From positions 1 through 63,314 of the IMG/VR virus record IMGVR_UViG_3300037156_000068: 63,314 nt of DNA; one strand, 5' to 3'. A program made the translations under genes and the position numbers. Under the pieces are notes generated by a model. The model was not told where the DNA came from and did no database searches. It saw only the letters and a list, made by a program, of their open reading frames with translations. The stretch comes from a virus (Duplodnaviria; Caudoviricetes). Of the stretch, positions 17,480 through 56,708 are shown one piece after another. How positions within the stretch are numbered: position 1 is the first letter of the stretch; each line of letters begins with the position of its first letter.

Positions 17480-18592
17480 TTATCTTGCTCTTCGTGCGCC
17501 AATGAAGCCATAGGACGTTACGGTCCCACTACCAAAATTAGAGTAAGCACCTAGATATACTGTGGTTGTGGTGGCCAAACTTAGACGAATAGTCCCGGTA
17601 ATAATAACCAAGCCACTTACGCTACTTGAATTAGGGGCACTTGAGTTATAGCCTCCCGCATTCGGGGGTGAGGGCCTCGTTGCAGATACTGTACTGATCC
17701 AAGTGATAGCATTAATCGCTGCCGAACTGCTGCCAGCGAATCCAACGTTTCCGTTAACATCCCAGTCACCGGCAGTGAGACTGATGGATGCGACATCAGC
17801 AGCCACTGTGGATGTGAGCGAGACTGCACTGCCAAAGGCTCGGGTCTCGCTAATATACTCACCGACATAACCGGCAGCCGCATCATCATTAGTCGTTGTG
17901 CCGAGTAAGTGGCCTCCAATTGTAATCGTACCTGATCCGGTAATCGGCCCACCCGAGGTGGTGAAGCCGGTAGTGCCACCCGAAACTGCAACACTCGTGA
18001 CGGTACCTGTGCCCGAGACAGAACCCCAGGCAGGCACACCACCAGAGATTAGGAGCACGTCTCCCGTACCACCAACACCTAAGCGGGTAGCGCGGTTAGT
18101 CCCATTTCCAACGATAAGATCGCCAATAGATGTTATAGGCGATAGGGCATTAAAGGCGGCAGCGGCAGTATTCTCACCAGTTCCCCCATTTACCAGTTCG
18201 AGTGTTCCCGCAAGAGTGATGGTTCCTGAGGTTGTGATGGGGCCTCCTGAAGTTATCAGACCCGTGGTTCCACCTGACACATCAACACTAATAACGCCAC
18301 CACCAGAACCCCCGGAAGCCGTGGCGAGAGTTACCTGATCCCAGATGAGATTCTCTAGACTGTCATTAACGATCTGACGATAATAGCCAGGACCCCAGAT
18401 CGCTGCTGACCCTAATGAGTCTAGGGTGATTGGGTTAGTGTTAGGGATAACACCCGCATAATCGCTGTATGAAGTTTTAGGTGTGAAGCCACCTGGGATA
18501 TAAGTGAAAACCTGCCCACCGACGAGTGGTTGGCCATTCCCATCAAAGAATTGCTGACGGCCATTGGGGAGAAGGGCGACGGTAGTGGTCAA
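17480..18592 (-). CDS. tail fibre protein (leaderless paralog of 36404-38548)
   Basis: N-terminal LLPNGRQQFFDGNGQPLVGG...NTNPITLD virion-attachment domain; GTVTSV..GG.TG..GGPIT.SGT repeats. Confidence 0.8.
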   Translation of the reverse strand: MTTTVALLPNGRQQFFDGNGQPLVGGQVFTYIPGGFTPKTSYSDYAGVIPNTNPITLDSLGSAAIWGPGYYRQIVNDSLENLIWDQVTLATASGGSGGGVISVDVSGGTTGLITSGGPITTSGTITLAGTLELVNGGTGENTAAAAFNALSPITSIGDLIVGNGTNRATRLGVGGTGDVLLISGGVPAWGSVSGTGTVTSVAVSGGTTGFTTSGGPITGSGTITIGGHLLGTTTNDDAAAGYVGEYISETRAFGSAVSLTSTVAADVASISLTAGDWDVNGNVGFAGSSSAAINAITWISTVSATRPSPPNAGGYNSSAPNSSSVSGLVIITGTIRLSLATTTTVYLGAYSNFGSGTVTSYGFIGARRAR

Positions 18593-23715: not shown

Positions 23716-24780
23716 CTATGCTTCCTTCAATTGAAGACGATAATACGTTCCAAATGGTTCAGCACCCATTCGACGATAGAGTGTTGAGATCCTGTCTCCG
23801 GCACCTCTAATTCCAGCTCTCATAACCACTTCAGACACTCCACGATTGCGCAATCCCTCAGCGGCTTTACGTTGTAATTTTAAACCAATCCCGGGGTAAT
23901 CTGGCGAACTGTAGAATGCTGTGTGACAGCCAGAGAGACGACCGGTAGACTCTAGAGACTCACCAATAATAGTGACTAAGTATCCGAATATGCGTCCGTT
24001 AGATTTCGCCACTGTGATCTGTAACGCACCAGCATTGTCATAGGACTGTAGTAGGGCTAGATTCTTATTCGCATAGTTATCAGGATTCTCACCGACCTCA
24101 AGGCAATGCTCTTTCATCGCGAGTTGACCAGTGTCTAGTAGATTTTTAAAGGATTCAAACTCTAATACTAATTCTGGACCTGTGGTTACGCTACTAGCGC
24201 CAAGGAGCATCAAACTCTTCTGACGGGCGATAGCCGCTAGGCGTTCTAGTTGTGGCCTGTAAGCTGTAACATAGCGGTTAAGGGCGGCCACATCAACCTG
24301 GATGTTCTTGGCATTAAGTTCTGCCCACCGTTCACTGTCATGTTTGTGTGGGAGAAGATGCTCGAACAAATTTGCGCAGACCTCCTCATGAACTAGATCC
24401 TCGAATTGATAGGACTTACATTTGGTCCGTAGTTCAATTTGGTCTAACTTACGATCTAAATACTTAAATAGTTTAACTGTCTGCTCCAGATCATCGCTGA
24501 GCCCCGCGTTGACCGCACTACGGGCCGCCTCTTCCGGGTCTCTGCGTATAGTGACTATTTTTAAATCAGACTTCATATGGAGAGCCAATCTCCAGAAGGG
24601 TCCCACAGCAGTTTCAACTGTTCCTGTCTTAGGTTGATTAAACCAGGACTGAACATCCTCTAACTGGCGCATGTACTGAAGTTCATCATGGCCACAGTAC
24701 CAGTCATCATATGACAGGAACTCGGATAACCACGCGGTTCGAGACCTCGGTAATGCTAGGATAAGGAATTGCTGAGTCAT
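23716..24780 (-). CDS. sulfotransferase-like P-loop domain fused to GNAT acetyltransferase
   Basis: N-terminal FLILALPRSRTAWL; C-terminal SPDYPGIGLKL...LYRRMG. Confidence 0.65.
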   Translation of the reverse strand: MTQQFLILALPRSRTAWLSEFLSYDDWYCGHDELQYMRQLEDVQSWFNQPKTGTVETAVGPFWRLALHMKSDLKIVTIRRDPEEAARSAVNAGLSDDLEQTVKLFKYLDRKLDQIELRTKCKSYQFEDLVHEEVCANLFEHLLPHKHDSERWAELNAKNIQVDVAALNRYVTAYRPQLERLAAIARQKSLMLLGASSVTTGPELVLEFESFKNLLDTGQLAMKEHCLEVGENPDNYANKNLALLQSYDNAGALQITVAKSNGRIFGYLVTIIGESLESTGRLSGCHTAFYSSPDYPGIGLKLQRKAAEGLRNRGVSEVVMRAGIRGAGDRISTLYRRMGAEPFGTYYRLQLKEA

Positions 24781-25205
24781 TACGTCTTAACCAATGCTGT
24801 CACAACTGCATAGCGGACTGCTGATGCGGACCCAGCCGCAGTAAGGCCATATGTCCCTGTGAAGTGCGCGTAGTCAGACCCCACCACTACCCTATTTCTG
24901 AGGTCTGGTAAGTTAAATGTGAGAATACCATCCCCGGGACCCCAGGTGGTGCCAATAGCTTCAAATAGTTGTGGGAAGTCTGTCCGATTAACGGGAGCCC
25001 CGTCACATACTAACCAACCATCTTGCCCACTTACTGATCCAGAAAACTTAATATCTCCTGCGGCAAAGAGAGATCCACCCTCCTTAGCCCCGCTGCGAAG
25101 CCACAAGGTCATAAGAAGTCTGCGCCAAGACTCTTTAATGATGCCATCAGTTGTAGTGACAAATGGTGTGGAGATATTTGGAAAGCCCTGCTGCGTATCA
25201 GCCAT
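24780..25205 (-). CDS. tail collar domain protein
   Basis: GWLVCDGAPVNRTDFPQLFEAIGTTWGPGDG..TFNLPDLR. Confidence 0.85.
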   Translation of the reverse strand: MADTQQGFPNISTPFVTTTDGIIKESWRRLLMTLWLRSGAKEGGSLFAAGDIKFSGSVSGQDGWLVCDGAPVNRTDFPQLFEAIGTTWGPGDGILTFNLPDLRNRVVVGSDYAHFTGTYGLTAAGSASAVRYAVVTALVKT

Positions 25206-26533
25206 TATGTTTCACTTGGTTGGAACCAAGCATCAGCTCCGTTAAGTGCAGTAAAGATCGGTAAGTCCCAGAAAACTTCAAAGACCCTATAGCGCCCCTG
25301 GCCCAGTTGGGTGAATAAGACAGATCGATTGAATTGACCTGTAGCCCCAATTCCGCAAGTTCTAGGGTTGCCCCAGGTCTTACCTCTGTCATCACTATAA
25401 CGAAGAGAGATACGAGACTCGTTACTTACGAGTGTATCAGCCATCTCACCCACATCCATATCTAAGATAAGGCGAGACCATTCGATGCGTTGGCCGCCGG
25501 TCTCCTCTATGGGGAATCCTCGCCTGCGCACGATAGGTGAGCTGTTATCCGTATAGGCATTTAAGTCCCACTCGTACAGTTGTCCATTCTGCCAGTCTCC
25601 AACTACTATAGAACCATAAGCAGCCGCACAGTCGTTAGCCCTGATCCTGTGCTCCTCACCATTGTCATCGGTCCAAGTACGTTCGTGCCACATCTCCTCG
25701 GCCACATCATAGACCCATGTGGCGTCCGCAGAGGGGAAGGTCAGGACATAAAACGTATGACCGAGTTGTTGATAGGTAAATCCAATTGCATCAGTAGGGT
25801 CAGCATACTGTTGAATTTGCTGTTCAATGGCATGAGTGGAGATGCGCTTGGCTGCGTACTGATTGCCCGTGAAGACCATACAGCGGCCCTGGCGATCCTG
25901 AGACAACCAGTAGGTATTAAGATCCTGTCTAGCGATGCTGTATTTAGCGCAACAGCCGTGTTCAATGAAGACGCCTGGTAACTCTGCGAATGAGAAGTTG
26001 GCATTGCCAGCATCGTACCAGACTTCCGTAGTCTCAGTTCCGATAAGCCACACTTCACGGTGCATAACAATGACCGCTTGGATTGGATCGGGGTTGCCAG
26101 ATTTAGCGGCAATATCAAGTGGATCAAAAGCCGCTGCGGTTGCCCCCGGGGTTATTCCGCCTAAGAGGTTTGAATACGTCACATTTGATAGGGATGTGTA
26201 CCACTGATTAGTGCCTGGACGATTCAAGACAAAGAAGGTATCTACGAAATCAACTCGATCAGCCCCGTAGAATGCTCCAGTACCATTATCATTAATACTA
26301 GCCATGGCATGGGTAGTCAGGTCGATTGCACTTCCTAGGTTAGTCCCATCTACAATTACAATAGCCAGACCATTATCCGCCATGGATACGGGTGTTGTTA
26401 GATTGAGGTCCGCACTACCAAGTTCCCCTAGAACTGTTCGTGTCCAGTTTGGAGAAGTATAATAGACATACTGACCAATAACCTCAAAGAGTTGGCCATT
26501 TGATGCGGTGTATGAGCAGCGATGAATTGGCAT
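25205..26533 (-). CDS. P22 gp10-like tail hub/DNA stabilisation protein, C-terminal piece
   Basis: TTEVWYDAG, AKRISTHAIE, FTYQQLGHTFYVLTFP, SDDRGKTW, GQFNR. Confidence 0.85.
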   Translation of the reverse strand: MPIHRCSYTASNGQLFEVIGQYVYYTSPNWTRTVLGELGSADLNLTTPVSMADNGLAIVIVDGTNLGSAIDLTTHAMASINDNGTGAFYGADRVDFVDTFFVLNRPGTNQWYTSLSNVTYSNLLGGITPGATAAAFDPLDIAAKSGNPDPIQAVIVMHREVWLIGTETTEVWYDAGNANFSFAELPGVFIEHGCCAKYSIARQDLNTYWLSQDRQGRCMVFTGNQYAAKRISTHAIEQQIQQYADPTDAIGFTYQQLGHTFYVLTFPSADATWVYDVAEEMWHERTWTDDNGEEHRIRANDCAAAYGSIVVGDWQNGQLYEWDLNAYTDNSSPIVRRRGFPIEETGGQRIEWSRLILDMDVGEMADTLVSNESRISLRYSDDRGKTWGNPRTCGIGATGQFNRSVLFTQLGQGRYRVFEVFWDLPIFTALNGADAWFQPSET

Positions 26534-27088
26534 TTATGGTGAGGTGTAAGTTAAGTTGACGGTATTACTATCAGCCGCAGTACTCGCCGCATCCGTCACA
26601 GTACATTTGATGTACGCATCGAATGAGTTAAATGGTGTACCGATGGTGATTGTGTAACCTGTCGTCTGCGCCGTGGTGGACCCTGTAAATGTCCCGCTGC
26701 CAACACCACCAGTGCTGACTTCATCCCATAGATAGGTATAAGGAGGTGTACCACTACTAGGTGTGACTGTCAGAGAGAATGTATGGGCAGCATCACTACC
26801 AGAGAAATTCTGGTCATTGCCGATATTAGCCGATAAGGGTGGAGGAGGAGGTGGCGGCGGGGGAGGCGGCGGGGGGGGCGGCGGGGGAGGCGGCGGAGGG
26901 GGCGGTGGTGGTGGAGAGGGCGTATCAGCTAGCAGTGTCAGGCCAGGGGTCAATTGCATTGTTACGGGAAAAGGTGTCTCACCCCGAGTATTCGCCTCCG
27001 GATATAGATTAACGCAGCGTTGTGCGGAGGCGATTACAGATCTCGCCTGGTACATTCCGCCAGTTAATGGTATACGCTGTTGAGCCAT
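26534..27088 (-). CDS. gp10-like N-terminal piece + 26xPro linker + Ig/PKD-like domain
   Basis: RIPLTGGMYQARS..SAQRCVNLYPE...TPGL; then SSGTPPYTYLW...KCTVTDA. Confidence 0.75.
   Translation of the reverse strand: MAQQRIPLTGGMYQARSVIASAQRCVNLYPEANTRGETPFPVTMQLTPGLTLLADTPSPPPPPPPPPPPPPPPPPPPPPPPPPPLSANIGNDQNFSGSDAAHTFSLTVTPSSGTPPYTYLWDEVSTGGVGSGTFTGSTTAQTTGYTITIGTPFNSFDAYIKCTVTDAASTAADSNTVNLTYTSP
26837..26914 (-). repeat. CCN x26 polyproline tract
   Basis: 78 nt of consecutive Pro codons with mixed third positions. Confidence 0.95.
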
Positions 27089-27810
27089 TAATATCCGTCA
27101 CTATAGACATTGTAACCGCGCTGAGCACCAATCACAGCGGCGGGCATCTTCATCGTGGGGACCTGTACGTTAGCCCCTCGGATAACATTTAGTGCGTCTT
27201 TAGCCAGCTCAATCATAACTGGATCAGGAGGCATCCTATACGCAACTCGCAGACGAACCTGAAGATTGTAGGACAGGGCCGCCTCATACTCAGGAGGTAA
27301 GTTGATCGTCTGAGTTAAAGAGGTGAACGCAGTGAGTTGGTTCTTTACGAGTATGTGTAATTCATATAGATTGGCCTTGGGTACTGGCCACGCGAAGACT
27401 GTACCTGTGGGCCAGTTGGAATCATAAAACATGATAGATGGCCAGGTGCCCATAGTCTTTAGGCGGATACGGTTATAGTCTTCATGCGAGGGTAGCAATT
27501 GTAGGGGATAGTCGATTTGTTGTGTATTACCTGTTGCAATCTGGCGCAGGAAGCACCCATCCTCTAGCCTGTCTGGCCTGGGCGTATTGAATTGTTGCCC
27601 AGTACCAACTGTATAACTCTCTCCCCCGGTGGTAACGACGGACACATCTGTTAGATTATAGATCAACCAACGCTTACGATTCCATTGTCCAATCATATAA
27701 TTGACACGGATCAGCGCATTCTGAATGTCTTCCGCAGTGGCAATCTGACCCACGCCGAGGATACCGGAGTCGATTAGCGCTAGGGACAGAAGGTCATTCA
27801 CAGTGGTCAT
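27088..27810 (-). CDS. head-tail adaptor (P22 gp4-like)
   Basis: ALIDSGILG.G....AED...AL..VN.M...W; LPPEYEAAL.YNL. Confidence 0.8.
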   Translation of the reverse strand: MTTVNDLLSLALIDSGILGVGQIATAEDIQNALIRVNYMIGQWNRKRWLIYNLTDVSVVTTGGESYTVGTGQQFNTPRPDRLEDGCFLRQIATGNTQQIDYPLQLLPSHEDYNRIRLKTMGTWPSIMFYDSNWPTGTVFAWPVPKANLYELHILVKNQLTAFTSLTQTINLPPEYEAALSYNLQVRLRVAYRMPPDPVMIELAKDALNVIRGANVQVPTMKMPAAVIGAQRGYNVYSDGY

Positions 27811-29749: not shown

Positions 29750-30124
29750 TTACGCATCTAGCCTACTCACCCTAGCCTCTTCGGCAATTGAATCAAATAG
29801 ACTAATATCAACATGGATAGACAGAACATCGACCATAATGTTAGGATTATAGTCTTTGAAGTCGTCTCCATGTCCAATTTTCAGATGGCACTCTTTACTT
29901 GGGTCCATACATAATGTGATTAGATTAGTCGTATCAAGTTCTAGTGCCGGGTAAAGGTGAAAGGGTTTCTTATGGTGAACATTGAGTTTGGTTTTTGAAC
30001 CACAACATTCACAAACTGGATTAAGCTTTCGATAGGCCTTTTCAACTTTAGGCCATTCAGGGCTGCGGGGCTTTGTGATCCCAGCCACCTTATCACGAAC
30101 TTTAGTGTTCGCCAAGTTCACCAT
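29750..30124 (-). CDS. HNH endonuclease
   Basis: CECCG..LNVHH..NLITLC..CHLKIGH. Confidence 0.85.
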   Translation of the reverse strand: MVNLANTKVRDKVAGITKPRSPEWPKVEKAYRKLNPVCECCGSKTKLNVHHKKPFHLYPALELDTTNLITLCMDPSKECHLKIGHGDDFKDYNPNIMVDVLSIHVDISLFDSIAEEARVSRLDA

Positions 30125-51333: not shown

Positions 51334-51681
51334 ATGTCCAGCGAGGATACCAAAAAGGCTCTATTCAAATTACGATGGCCTGAGAATACGTGGTCTCTGC
51401 ACGCTTTAGCAAATCAACCAAGGACATTGACGTCTATGTCTAATAATCGTCATAACCATTTCAAAAATGCCTCCTGCTATTATGAATGGCGTTCCCATTG
51501 GCGTTACGCCTATAAGCGCCTCTCCAATCAAATCGCATCACTTAAAGATCGCGTTAAGTATGGGGACCATCCGCGCCTCTATCAGGGCGTCCTAGCATCG
51601 TTACGATGTGAGGCTCATGCGATGATGATTGCGCGTGAGGCGGTCACTGAGCAATATAGGCAAAATAGGTTAGCAGAATGA
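51334..51681 (+). CDS. hypothetical protein
   Basis: Y.EWR..WR..YK.LS..I..LK. Confidence 0.6.
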   Translation: MSSEDTKKALFKLRWPENTWSLHALANQPRTLTSMSNNRHNHFKNASCYYEWRSHWRYAYKRLSNQIASLKDRVKYGDHPRLYQGVLASLRCEAHAMMIAREAVTEQYRQNRLAE

Positions 51682-52376
51682 CCATTCTCTATAAACTCAC
51701 AACACAAGATAACAAGACTCGTAGGGGTTATCCTAACGAGATTACCTGGGGGCCTTGTGTGACCCACTCTGGGACCGGTAAGGGTGGACTTTGTGGCCCG
51801 GGCTATATCCACGCTTACACCAGCCCGCTTCTGGCAGTTCTGTTGGACCCTTCTCATGCAAACATTTATAATCCAAAGCTTTGGGTGTGCGAAGGGGATA
51901 TCACACTTAGTGATAATGGTTTGAAGGTTGGGTGCGTAAGTTTGACCACCACAACGGAGATTATGCTGCCTGTTATCACTGTTGAACAGAAAATTAAGTT
52001 TGCTATTCTGTGCGCCCAGGCAGTTTGTAAAGACAGTTATTGGAATGCGTGGGCTAATGACTGGTTGTCCGATAAAGATCGTACCTACGCAGCGACGAGT
52101 TATGCGTCGAGTGCGTCGAGTGCGTCGAGTGCGGCGAGTTATGCGGCGAGTTTAGCGGCGAGTTATGCGGCGAGTTTAGCGGCGAGTTTAGCGGCGAGTT
52201 TAGCGGCGAGAGCGGCGAGTTATGCGGCGAGAGCGGCGAGTTATGCGGCGAGGGATGCGGCGAGAGCGGCGAGTTTAGCGGCGAGTTTAGCGGCGAGTTA
52301 TGCGGCGAGAGCGGCGAGTGCGGCGAGGGTACCATTAGATTTAATTAGTCTCGCTGAAAAAGCAATGGAAAGTTAA
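51678..52376 (+). CDS. phage protein with an Ala/Ser-rich tandem repeat
   Basis: LYKLT...LCGPGYIHAY..PLLA; (AASY/AASL/AAR)n. Confidence 0.75.
   Translation: MTILYKLTTQDNKTRRGYPNEITWGPCVTHSGTGKGGLCGPGYIHAYTSPLLAVLLDPSHANIYNPKLWVCEGDITLSDNGLKVGCVSLTTTTEIMLPVITVEQKIKFAILCAQAVCKDSYWNAWANDWLSDKDRTYAATSYASSASSASSAASYAASLAASYAASLAASLAASLAARAASYAARAASYAARDAARAASLAASLAASYAARAASAARVPLDLISLAEKAMES
52092..52328 (+). repeat. coding minisatellite of 9/12-nt units (gcggcgagt + tat/tta, gcggcgaga)
   Basis: directly visible. Confidence 0.95.
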
Positions 52377-55331: not shown

Positions 55332-56708
55332 ATGTGTGGTATTGTTGGTGTTGCTGGGTGGGTAGGGCATCGAGAGAAGGCCGTATTCTCTAACCTGCTA
55401 GGTTGGGATGTTGTTCGAGGTCCCCATGCTACTGGTGTGGCGGCTATTCGGGGTGGGGCTAACGAAGTTCATATCTTAAAGCGGGCGATGCACGCCTATG
55501 ATTTTATGGACCTAAAAGCCTATGACCCTACGATTGATAACTCAAAGATTCTAATCGGTCACAATAGATTTGGGACTGTCGGCGGTAATTCGAGTAGGAA
55601 CGCCCACCCATTTGTATTCGACAATGTTGTTGGTGTCCATAACGGAACCATCCAATATTCTGATCGTAAGGTTTTGAAAGATCATGACAAATTCGATACG
55701 GACTCGGAGGCCATCTACTATAACATCAGTGAACTCGGTCCAAAGGAGGCCCTTAAAGACCTTAAGGGTGCGTGGTCTCTCGTGTGGTGGGACCGCGTGG
55801 AACATAAGCTTAACTTCCTTAGGAATAAAGAGCGTCCTATGTATTGGACACTTTCCGAGACGGGAAAGGAGCTCTACTGGGCATCTGAGTCTGGGATGCT
55901 TCAAGCCGTCTTGGCTCGTCATAGTGTCAAGCACGGAGCGGTCTACGGCACACCAGAAGACACGATGCTATCGTTTACCATTCCTGATGATTATAACACT
56001 GTGATAGCTAGCCCTGAGCGCACGGAGGTGAAGGGAGCGCTCCCTTTCGTGTTTCCGGTTCATCAAAGGGGTCTGGGGGGCTACGAGAATTGGGACGAGG
56101 AGGGATGGCGCGGGGGGTATCACAGTCGCAACAAGGTACGAGACACCACAGCGTTACCCGGGCATGGCACAGGGGGTCAGAAATCCCTGTCGGATTTGCG
56201 GTCAACGGGGCAGGGCAGCTCATCCCAACCACCAGCCTTAGTCGTAGGGCCCTCAGAAAAGCCAGCCGAAGAGGCCTCGTCGGAAAGGCCCAACCTCAAG
56301 AAGCCTGAACGAGGGGCCATGTCTGATCTGGTGGAGACGGTTCAAGCGAAGATCAGGGAGTATGGTGGGGGAGATAGCTCTGTCCCTTTCACGCCAGGAC
56401 GCGCACCAGATACGCCAGGTGATAAAGTCGTTCATCTAGAGGATAAGATGCGGGGGACAGCGGCCAGATTTGTCCCGGCCTTTAATGACATTTATATCGG
56501 CCGAGAGGATTTCGATAAGATGTCAAAGAATGGCTGCGCCTACTGCGAAAAGGGCGTGCTATTCCAAGACATTCTCCAAAAGCGTGAGACCATCCATTGG
56601 CTCAAGCGAGACGCCTTCTTATGCACTGAATGTATGGATGATCCGGACATCCTTGAGTACCTGGCCGGAATGAACATTGAACTTCCACAAAGGAAAAAGT
56701 CGAATTAA
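55332..56708 (+). CDS. class II (Ntn) glutamine amidotransferase with C-terminal Zn finger
   Basis: MCGIVG, RGPHATG, GHNR, NAHPF, HNGTI, TDSE; CAYC...CTEC. Confidence 0.92.
   Translation: MCGIVGVAGWVGHREKAVFSNLLGWDVVRGPHATGVAAIRGGANEVHILKRAMHAYDFMDLKAYDPTIDNSKILIGHNRFGTVGGNSSRNAHPFVFDNVVGVHNGTIQYSDRKVLKDHDKFDTDSEAIYYNISELGPKEALKDLKGAWSLVWWDRVEHKLNFLRNKERPMYWTLSETGKELYWASESGMLQAVLARHSVKHGAVYGTPEDTMLSFTIPDDYNTVIASPERTEVKGALPFVFPVHQRGLGGYENWDEEGWRGGYHSRNKVRDTTALPGHGTGGQKSLSDLRSTGQGSSSQPPALVVGPSEKPAEEASSERPNLKKPERGAMSDLVETVQAKIREYGGGDSSVPFTPGRAPDTPGDKVVHLEDKMRGTAARFVPAFNDIYIGREDFDKMSKNGCAYCEKGVLFQDILQKRETIHWLKRDAFLCTECMDDPDILEYLAGMNIELPQRKKSN

Follow-up and report, generated by a model that had tools for sequence, protein, structure and literature searches.

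The gene for the tail hub of the P22-like phage analysed here is divided into two abutting open reading frames, ORF1 and ORF2, by a segment that encodes a run of 26 prolines, an Ig-like domain and a stop codon. The DNA is that of IMG/VR virus record IMGVR_UViG_3300037156_000068, and its full stretch of 63,314 nucleotides is called the window below. This split architecture was seen in one phage lineage only. We consider it moderately likely that ORF1 and ORF2 are translationally coupled and that their chains reassemble into one hub, a reading favoured by the conserved N-terminal segment, the intact ORF2, the synonymous differences, the operon-style junction, a predicted complex of the two chains and the precedent of phage A1002. 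The record is metagenome-derived, with a CheckV completeness of 85%. It encodes a DNA polymerase, a ribonucleotide reductase, a terminase, a portal and ejection proteins, and this uncultivated peat phage looks autonomous from its sequence.

The gene order is coat protein (PF11651, E 3e-36), adaptor-like gene, ORF1/ORF2, tail collar gene and gp7-like ejection protein, and each feature located in this paragraph is on the minus strand. The gp4-like head-to-tail adaptor of P22 type (27088..27810; phrog_12985, E 5.1e-32; phrog_637 'head-tail adaptor Ad3', E 1.7e-7), whose counterpart in PAE2 is annotated as P22 tail accessory factor, lies directly upstream of ORF1, and its TAA overlaps the ORF1 ATG (TAATG). 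ORF1 (26534..27088) encodes 184 aa, namely a gp10-type hub N-terminal extension at residues 1-56 (26921..27088), which runs MAQQRIPLTGGMYQARSVIASAQRCVNLYPE...LTPGLTLLAD, followed by P57 and S58, the Pro59-Pro84 tract of 26 codons (26837..26914), an Ig/PKD-like beta-sandwich of SprB-repeat type at residues 85-184 (26537..26836) and a TAA. ORF2 (25205..26533; 442 aa), which carries the hub beta-propeller and C-terminal extension, is in the same frame. The TAA-ATG junction (26531..26536) consists of the ORF1 stop at 26534-26536 and the ORF2 ATG at 26531-26533, within CCA TAA ATG CCA at plus-strand coordinates 26528-26539. Downstream of ORF2, a gene with a phage tail collar domain (24780..25205; PF07484, E 3.5e-18) overlaps the ORF2 TAA with its ATG, again as TAATG. 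An earlier sequence-only reading had placed the start of ORF2 at the very next in-frame codon after the stop and had given 627 aa for a fusion; the first was found as stated, and the second is the sum 184 + 1 + 442.

The two frames share a single hub profile. PHROG 578 (head closure Hc3, P22 gp10 family) matched ORF1 residues 1-56 over profile positions 1-55 (E 3.9e-5) and ORF2 residues 7-420 over positions 63-452 of 486 (E 2.5e-88), which bears out the earlier description of a split gp10-like hub. No second hub gene was found in the record by tblastn. A Pfam search gave no PF11134 match for ORF2 or for its unsplit relative P0007, even at E<=10, and PF11134.14 (Phage_stabilise) is listed for all 120 homologs in a precomputed table; since the miss is common to unsplit members, it is uninformative on the split. 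ORF2 is predicted to have the beta-propeller fold of the solved hubs. Its model superposed on the hub chains of P22 gp10, Sf6 gp8, Pan3 and Pam1 (E 5.8e-26 to 7.4e-22, TMq 0.62-0.69), with Foldseek values of E 5.8e-26 for 9vyg_M, E 5.4e-23 and TMq 0.69 for P22 gp10 (8eap_D) and E 4.6e-22 for Sf6 gp8 (7sg7_S), and the homolog profile matched 9vyg_M at 2.4e-22 and 7eeq_1 at 9.5e-19. In full profile length and in gene position after a gp4-like adaptor, as in the P22-type morphogenesis block, the locus resembles P22 gp10 and Sf6 gp8. However, every other member examined is one polypeptide, whereas in the window the cut separates the N-terminal extension from blade 1 and places the two extensions in different genes, the N-terminal one in ORF1 and the C-terminal one in ORF2.

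Unsplit relatives define the insertion site. ORF2 is 82% identical to P0007, the N-terminal segment of ORF1 is 86% identical to the start of the same protein, and in unsplit relatives a near-identical N-terminal segment runs directly into the propeller. With relatives this close, the split arrangement is not due to chance. Where relatives read ...LTPGLTQLIAGTGATHRCAFTASNG, the window reads ...LTPGLTLLADTPS[P26-Ig-TAA]MPIHRCSYTASNG, such that 128 extra residues and a stop codon separate the N-terminal extension from blade 1. The N-terminal segment is nearly invariant and among the best conserved parts in 43 unsplit homologs; the ORF1 copy keeps all 4 invariant and 18 nearly invariant residues (alignment A2, 44 rows), and ORF2 has all 52 invariant columns of alignment A1. 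Homologous hubs do carry this segment, as the sequence-only reading had supposed. The linker from PGL to RC was measurable in 99 of 120 homologs; 88 of these have 11-12 residues, 10 have 13-16, and P0014 has 39. Of the remaining homologs, two matched the regular expression spuriously and 19 did not match it at all. The alignments indicate that the site between the N-terminal extension and blade 1 tolerates changes in length. The P0014 linker occupies the window's insertion site, and the additional domain of P0039 sits in a different loop; both insertions return to the fold, keep one reading frame and are without a stop codon. These and other in-frame loop insertions suggest that hubs of this clade accept surface additions.

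None of about 148 informative related hub loci was split at the window's site. A wider survey found the hub match within one open frame in 132 of 134 loci, and a hub with its start in a separate ORF in none of the 134. The ORF1 architecture was absent from the six matches of a search at similar lengths, and comparison of ORF1 with viral_contigs and metagenome_contigs returned one locus each, for the N-terminal part only. No fused in-frame form was present among 117 longer matches, which covered at most 59% of ORF1. These searches for relatives of ORF1 depend on shared exact words, and diverged cases could escape them.

The junction recurs in independent data. It was crossed by contigs from three other studies, X11 (26051-26759), X2 (26395-26645) and X3 (26377-26838), all without differences at 26531-26536, which speaks against the concern that the TAA might be an error. 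X2 additionally covers 26873-27270, comprising the tract, the N-terminal extension and the adaptor, while uncovered parts of the stretch in X2 and X3 count neither way. X1, possibly the source sample, spans the whole locus at a word depth of about 60. No contig in the runs examined joins the hub halves across the insert site; runs were compared as contigs, which lose rare variants, so a minor unsplit allele is possible. X11 showed 34 differences, and all 31 that were listed are synonymous (28 in ORF2 and three in the collar gene). The X11 differences are clustered (24 lie within 25137-25439), a pattern suggestive of patches acquired by recombination, possibly from unsplit relatives; for this reason the synonymous differences do not prove selection since the split. 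In X3, the Ig domain has two differences, both non-synonymous (A100T and G97S).

These data bear on the idea that the insertion is disruptive, with a broken hub whose ORF2 is poorly made or unable to assemble, in a defective variant that persists with the help of co-infecting unsplit relatives or in a recent dead end. Occurrence in a single lineage would agree with it, as would the lack of a Shine-Dalgarno-like run before ORF2, the possible minor unsplit allele and the metagenomic origin and incomplete state of the record. Nevertheless, we regard a broken hub as unlikely. The same junction stands in the contigs of three other studies and at appreciable word depth in the possible source sample, no contig joins across the insert, 28 of 28 assessed ORF2 differences are synonymous, both pieces keep every conserved residue, and the exact in-frame TAA-ATG join matches the coupling style of the operon.

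The sequence-only reading had offered, as one of two options, that the two chains complement in trans and display an adhesin on a stalk; this option fits all evidence gathered, which is computational. For ORF2 with ORF1 residues 1-58, the predicted complex reached an ipSAE of 0.93 in three of three runs, against 0.00 for the best of three controls, with 212-217 contacts, a partner pLDDT of 84-86 and at least 97% of contacts common to the runs; contacts include ORF2 residues 417-438. Of 80 solved complexes, 58 attain this score mark, as do two of 110 mismatched pairs; the counts apply here only roughly, our own alignments having been used. Since the pieces are halves of a solved type of fold and the alignments hold unsplit homologs, a pass was expected, and it shows fit rather than assembly.

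It is improbable that ORF2 alone is a working hub and ORF1 a separate small protein, with a gp10-like start that is vestigial or attaches elsewhere. ORF2 is indeed predicted as a propeller by itself (mean pLDDT 84.6), but this model is weakest (pLDDT 66-71) in blocks 321-350, inside the region predicted to contact the N-terminal piece. Moreover, the N-terminal segment, one of the best-conserved parts of the unsplit homologs, is fully kept in ORF1, and the wider survey found no hub that starts in a separate ORF. In Sf6 (PMC9728967), the N- and C-terminal extensions jointly form an apical domain that inserts between two adaptors, so the N-terminal segment corresponds to half of an adaptor-docking domain; an in-situ preprint on P22 gave nothing further about this extension.

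The segment that follows the prolines is a C-terminal module in other proteins. The beta-sandwich anticipated after the proline run was recovered for ORF1 residues 85-184 by AlphaFold2, with eight strands in an Ig-like arrangement and a mean pLDDT of 96.6. Its Pfam SprB match (PF13573) stayed below the cut-off (E 2.1e-5, 24.5 bits vs 28) and covered residues 105-125 only; multi-repeat relatives pass the same cut-off, such as P0153 at 105 bits. We found 519 relatives of the module at E<=1e-3. A fold search of PDB with the model yielded no match at E<=1e-3 and only generic Ig/PKD resemblance (PKD domain 2yrl, TMq 0.60). BFVD gave 11 matches at E<=1e-3 (best TMq 0.77-0.79), including a 'Tip attachment protein J' (TMq 0.79, 35% identity), PKD-domain phage proteins, tail proteins and capsid decoration proteins, and relatives of the module match phrog_2973 'Hoc-like head decoration' (E 2.1e-6). 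In 11 of 11 aligned single-copy relatives the module forms the extreme C-terminus, mostly with ...LTY(T/S)xP endings as in ORF1. This constant position suggests that the 3' end of a gene, stop codon included, was probably inserted into the hub linker of 11-12 residues. The 397-aa P0140 has the proline linker and the P-LSANIG-DQ join in common with ORF1, as well as the same end point. Over its first 250 residues P0140 is similar to viral proteins and points weakly to Phage_stabilise/Phage_nozzle (atlas score 0.88; E 1.3e-3 and probability 18.8% for hhalign against the hub profile); searches of P0140 gave no PHROG match, no Pfam match beyond SprB and no relative in viral_contigs. Separately, a diversity-generating retroelement acting on the Ig domain was considered and rejected, since the insert occurs only once in the window, with 18 nt as the best further blastn match.

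Translation of ORF2 would have to be reached through ORF1. No Shine-Dalgarno-like run precedes its ATG, so that its translation would rest wholly on reinitiation. Comparable stop-start junctions recur in this operon: seven gene pairs of the same strand block have a TAATG overlap, a stop and a start with zero spacing occur also at 18592/18593, and several of the stop-start genes are likewise without a Shine-Dalgarno-like run. The other option of the sequence-only reading, read-through of the UAA or other recoding into a single functional hub chain of 627 aa, agrees with the exact frame of ORF1 and ORF2 and the one stop codon between them; it is nonetheless disfavoured, and we judge it a long shot. 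TAA terminates 40 of the 70 long ORFs of the record, with nearly all structural genes among them, and the record has no tRNA genes and therefore no phage suppressor; a change of genetic code was rejected on the same two counts, and of the marks of programmed read-through we found neither a suppressor tRNA nor a sign of codon reassignment. The longer relatives of ORF1 include no fused form, and relatives of the module all end at this point. A fused chain would also have to close a loop made of the Pro26 rod and an Ig domain of the tandem-array type, which would probably be awkward.

The proline tract is encoded by 9 CCG, 6 CCC, 6 CCT and 5 CCA codons, with a GC fraction of 0.86, a tandem periodicity of 12/24 nt and a run of eight C. 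Ribosomes are expected to stall on a run of 26 prolines (EF-P-dependent stalling), which counts against the coupled reading. A frameshift within the tract that would lead to another long product was rejected, the shifted frames stopping after 28 and 47 codons, which likewise argues against recoding into a single hub chain. Only X1 bridges the tract end to end, so its length is confirmed solely by the possible source sample. An assembly or sequencing artefact, be it a chimera through the GC-rich tract or a false stop, is very improbable even with the run of eight C, the bridge by X1 alone and the unrelated contigs that pile up in numbers on 26853-26905, considering that X11, X2 and X3 hold the Ig-TAA-ATG-propeller flank, that X2 holds the tract-N-extension-adaptor flank and that the hub halves are about equally close to P0007.

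We therefore return to coupling and reassembly, for which the following course of events is proposed. A piece of DNA with the 3' end of another virion-protein gene would have entered the tail hub gene of a P22-like podovirus, bringing a proline linker, an Ig-like domain and the donor gene's own stop codon. Landing in the short stretch that joins the N-terminal extension to the first propeller blade, it would have turned one gene into two. Ribosomes that stop at the ORF1 TAA would restart at the adjacent ATG, as presumably at the operon's other stop-start junctions, and this reinitiation would yield roughly equal amounts of the two chains. The 56-residue N-terminal piece of ORF1 would fold with ORF2, including its C-terminal strands, and rebuild the apical domain through which the Sf6 hub docks between two adaptor subunits. 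The proline rod, at most about 8 nm if fully extended, would then hold one Ig-like domain off each of the six hub subunits. The term adhesin derives from the presumed roles of Ig-like domains on virions; those displayed on this hub would probably be weak accessory binders of surface or matrix sugars.

If both chains assemble, the locus would represent natural fragment complementation inside a virion machine, caught near its origin, with unsplit parents still 82% identical and the inserted cassette recognisable. It would offer a short-tailed phage a simple genetic route to a surface appendage without a new attachment site: the end of a gene, with its stop codon, enters a tolerant linker, and a neighbouring ATG restarts translation. 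The segment linking the N-terminal extension to blade 1 would, in that case, be a permissive display site on P22-type hubs.

Ig-like domains reportedly occur on phage virions, an observation attributed to Fraser et al. in 2006. To our knowledge, known virion Ig modules extend an otherwise intact structural protein at its end, either as an in-frame fusion or through frameshifting. The module in the window has a predicted Ig/PKD-like sandwich in common with T4 Hoc-type domains, tail tip J and the Ig/PKD domains of tail proteins. In contrast to these, it sits with its stop codon inside a structural gene, which it splits.

The closest parallel is the Pseudomonas podophage A1002. According to its cryo-EM description of November 2026 (PMC13730344), A1002 has a two-protein nozzle, gp39 nozzle-rope and gp42 nozzle-base, each of which contributes beta-strands that complete the platform and propeller of the other. 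Both phages divide a canonical single-chain nozzle or hub over two proteins, with the assembly seen in A1002 and predicted in the window, and in both the platform-bearing chain, here ORF1, also carries a rope and an Ig-like domain. The same account also reveals differences. The A1002 rope protein supplies C-terminal parts of the platform and propeller, whereas the window detaches the N-terminal extension; its rope is folded, measures about 300 A and docks 11 fibre dimers, whereas the rope in the window is a bare Pro26 tract; and the A1002 genes are non-adjacent by their numbering, whereas those in the window abut at TAA-ATG. Since close relatives of the window hub are unsplit, the two splits are likely of independent origin, and they are set side by side here by description. 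It is tempting, if doubtful, to see in the proline linker, Ig-like domain and stop codon a mobile 'split-and-display' cassette that lands in surface linkers of podophage hubs and nozzles and turns one gene into two coupled genes plus a whisker, as a first step towards roped nozzles of the A1002 type; by its sequence, P0140 may be a second, independent case. If true, this would show how single-chain nozzles could become the two-protein nozzles seen by cryo-EM. The A1002 work already shows a nozzle of two proteins, with a rope and an Ig-like domain, and the window adds a fresh variation on that design, in one lineage only.

The window is an entire IMG/VR record, linear and of 63,314 bases, with a CheckV completeness of 85%. 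It has genes for a DNA polymerase and a ribonucleotide reductase, and also for a large terminase, portal, P22-type coat protein, gp4-like adaptor, ejection proteins and tail fibre; by this gene content it is a short-tailed phage of the P22-like kind that brings its own replication genes. Its tail hub is encoded on the minus strand by ORF1 (26534-27088, 184 aa) and, in the same frame, ORF2 (25205-26533, 442 aa), which meet at CCA TAA ATG CCA. Positions 1-55 of PHROG 578 (the P22 gp10 family) matched ORF1 residues 1-56 (E = 3.9e-5) and positions 63-452 of its 486 matched ORF2 residues 7-420 (E = 2.5e-88). The residues between these matches are P57, S58 and 26 prolines (P59-P84), followed by a 100-residue domain. 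The sequence-only reading, which had described a hub start in a separate ORF, a Pro26 tract and a restart at the next codon, was correct in all these details, coordinates included.

Other features of the window deserve mention. Amid the tail and ejection genes, a 354-aa protein (23716-24780, minus strand) matched a PHROG labelled hydrolase (E = 1.8e-12) and, below the cut-off, a Pfam sulfotransferase (E = 0.002) with its N-terminal half, while its C-terminal half was acetyltransferase-like (phrog_1249, E = 1.2e-6); it is a candidate surface-sugar-modifying enzyme. A 458-aa protein (55332-56708, plus strand) is a candidate auxiliary metabolic gene product, as its residues 1-223 matched positions 1-226 of 498 of phrog_4736, labelled L-glutamine-D-fructose-6-phosphate aminotransferase (E = 2.2e-76). 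At 52092-52319, within a 232-aa ORF (51678-52376, plus strand), a 12/24-nt unit (TGCGGCGAGTTA) is repeated in tandem about 10-16 times, either as an iteron-like array or as a repeat protein. Between the coat gene and lysis-like genes, a 124-aa ORF (29750-30124, minus strand) showed by eye CxxC ... HH motifs reminiscent of an HNH endonuclease.

The closest proteins (492-504 aa, 78-82% identity to ORF2) start with a near-identical copy of ORF1 residues 1-50 that continues directly into the propeller: they read ...LTPGLTQLIAGTGATHRCAFTASNG, and the window reads ...LTPGLTLLADTPS, then P26, the Ig-like domain and TAA, then MPIHRCSYTASNG. Searching viral contigs with ORF2 gave 15 loci, one truncated by a contig end, and in all 14 informative ones the same open frame also held the N-terminal motif, which bears out the assumption that homologous hubs possess this segment. 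We extended the survey with a profile of 43 homologs to 134 loci (80 viral and 54 genome), where the match lay within a single open frame in 132 and none was split at the window's site; the other two had an extra partial copy and three in-frame TAG codons, respectively. Eight of the 132 lacked a detectable N-terminal match, five being cut by contig ends and three being distant. In two cultured phages, Pseudomonas phage PAE2 and Acetobacter phage phiAX1, the hub gene is unsplit (473 and 479 codons, respectively). The architecture of ORF1 was absent among proteins of similar length (6 matches) and among longer ones (117 matches, coverage at most 59%), and an ORF1 search did not find it in viral or metagenome contigs.

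Several homologs were unusual in other ways. The locus with TAG codons (L026:1387-2952, IMGVR_UViG_2576861470_000002; TAG at 1615, 1747 and 2800) is otherwise intact and ends in TGA; amber reassignment, suppression or a decaying prophage gene may account for it. In P0011 (748 aa, from a Logan contig of 3,956 bases), which is 77% identical to ORF2, one continuous open frame was called for the gp4-like adaptor plus hub (...YNVYSDGYQMPTQRIPL...), the opposite of the split; the two are either truly fused or separated by a stop that was missequenced. Some homologs of 530-680 aa carried in-frame insertions in other loops, including about 90 residues after a 'SLSNV' motif in P0039 and about 40 residues close to the C-terminus in P0037, P0043 and P0047; the hub propeller is a frequent scaffold for extra surface pieces.

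The insertion site is a linker, measurable in 99 of 120 homologs, with 11-12 residues in 88, 13-16 in 10 and 39 in one (P0014); in 19 homologs the pattern had no match, and two other hits were regex artefacts. A search of 1.84 billion representatives gave 519 relatives of the 100-residue domain (E ≤ 1e-3), mostly giant proteins with up to 59 copies. In the 11 single-copy relatives aligned, the domain always stood at the extreme protein end, mostly terminating in ...LTY(T/S)xP as does ORF1, and the closest (P0140, 54% identity) had a long proline-rich linker with the same P-LSANIG-DQ join. For these reasons the most fitting reading of the inserted DNA is a gene's 3' end that includes the stop codon. 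G+C content was the same in the Ig part (0.48) and the hub (0.49), and the window record held no second copy of the insert. Eight proteins of 153-166 aa (P0172, P0180, P0183, P0192, P0195, P0219, P0227 and P0261) start with a conserved segment of about 55 residues that is joined to one copy of the module, and are possible cassette donors; P0183 and P0195 matched phrog_26817 (unknown function), and scans of P0172 and P0227 gave no match.

The beta-sandwich expected after Pro26 was modelled confidently as an Ig-like domain of eight strands (pLDDT 96.6). Against the PDB it had no match at E ≤ 1e-3, only generic Ig and PKD domains appearing (best TMq 0.60), and against predicted viral structures it had 11, including tail tip protein J (TMq 0.79) and PKD-domain, tail and capsid decoration proteins. 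A Pfam SprB match fell below the cut-off (24.5 bits vs 28), and module relatives matched a Hoc-like PHROG (E = 2.1e-6). By these models the domain is an Ig-like module of the virion-surface kind, with a putative binding function.

According to PMC9728967, the Sf6 hub is an interrupted six-bladed propeller whose N- and C-terminal extensions jointly form an apical domain, which inserts between two adaptor subunits. By this architecture, the split falls at a domain boundary and detaches one half of the adaptor-docking domain. Few parts of the family are as well conserved as the N-terminal piece, of which ORF1 retains all 4 invariant and all 18 nearly invariant residues; ORF2 retains all 52 invariant columns, and its model resembles the P22 gp10, Sf6 gp8, Pan3 and Pam1 hubs (E = 5.8e-26 to 7.4e-22, TMq 0.62-0.69). 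ORF2 and ORF1 residues 1-58 were predicted to form a complex in three of three runs (ipSAE 0.93; best of three controls 0.00), with 212-217 contacts, at least 97% of them common to the runs, a partner pLDDT of 84-86 and contacts to the C-terminal strands 417-438 of ORF2. The score mark, reached in calibration by 58/80 solved and 2/110 mismatched pairs, is roughly applicable here and speaks for likeness and fit rather than binding, since the pieces are halves of a fold with solved relatives. TAATG overlaps join seven same-strand gene pairs, and an eighth pair has its stop directly before the next start; several of these starts, like that of ORF2, lack a Shine-Dalgarno-like run, which suggests that reinitiation after termination is the normal mode of this operon. 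Ribosomes would thus reinitiate at the ORF2 ATG, the ORF1 N-terminal piece would pack with ORF2 to rebuild the docking domain, and the proline rod, about 8 nm as a fully extended helix, would display the Ig-like domain on a stalk. The support for this working model is computational, and the split arrangement is seen so far in one lineage.

Read-through of the UAA into a single fused hub chain, the other possibility raised from the sequence, is disfavoured: 40 of the 70 long ORFs have TAA as their stop, the record has no tRNA genes, no fused relative was found among the 117 longer matches and shifted frames terminate early. Moreover, Ig-like domains of this type are found in tandem arrays and should therefore have their two ends at opposite poles, which would suit display on a stalk and not the closed loop of a fusion. 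A defective genome with a broken hub gene is less likely, as the conserved residues are intact, the join is exactly in frame and the split recurs in four studies. We compared contigs of four sequencing runs with the window: in X1, possibly the source sample, one contig covered the whole stretch with zero differences (word depth of about 60), and the TAA-ATG junction was without difference in three runs from three other studies (X11, 26051-26759; X2, 26395-26645; X3, 26377-26838), so the TAA stands in the sequencing data. None of the contig pieces listed bridged the hub without insert; there were 27 further pieces. The X11 strain had 34 differences, of which the 31 listed were all synonymous (28 in ORF2, 3 in the next gene); since they were clustered, recombination with unsplit relatives may have brought in some of them. 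That ORF2 works as a hub without ORF1 is unlikely given the strong conservation of the N-terminal segment and its role in Sf6 adaptor docking. An assembly artefact is also unlikely because both flanks were confirmed independently, X2 further covering 26873-27270, from the interior of the proline tract as far as the adaptor gene. The tract shows tandem periodicity of 12/24 nt and includes eight consecutive C; its length of 26 is less sure as only X1 bridged it whole.

From the close relatives that are still unsplit, and from a donor module that can still be recognised, the splitting event is dated as recent. Keyword searches of the open-access literature found no report of a split P22-type hub, nor of a gene split by a domain cassette bringing its own stop codon. 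The two-protein nozzle principle is already known from the Pseudomonas podophage A1002: its cryo-EM report (3 November 2026; PMC13730344) describes two proteins completing each other's platform and propeller, one bearing a 300-Å rope that ends in an Ig-like domain. What appears new here is a P22-type hub split by a module with its own stop. The window form shares this principle but is simpler and differs in its parts. The detached piece is C-terminal in A1002 and N-terminal in the window, where a bare proline rod replaces the rope and the two genes are adjacent and probably coupled.
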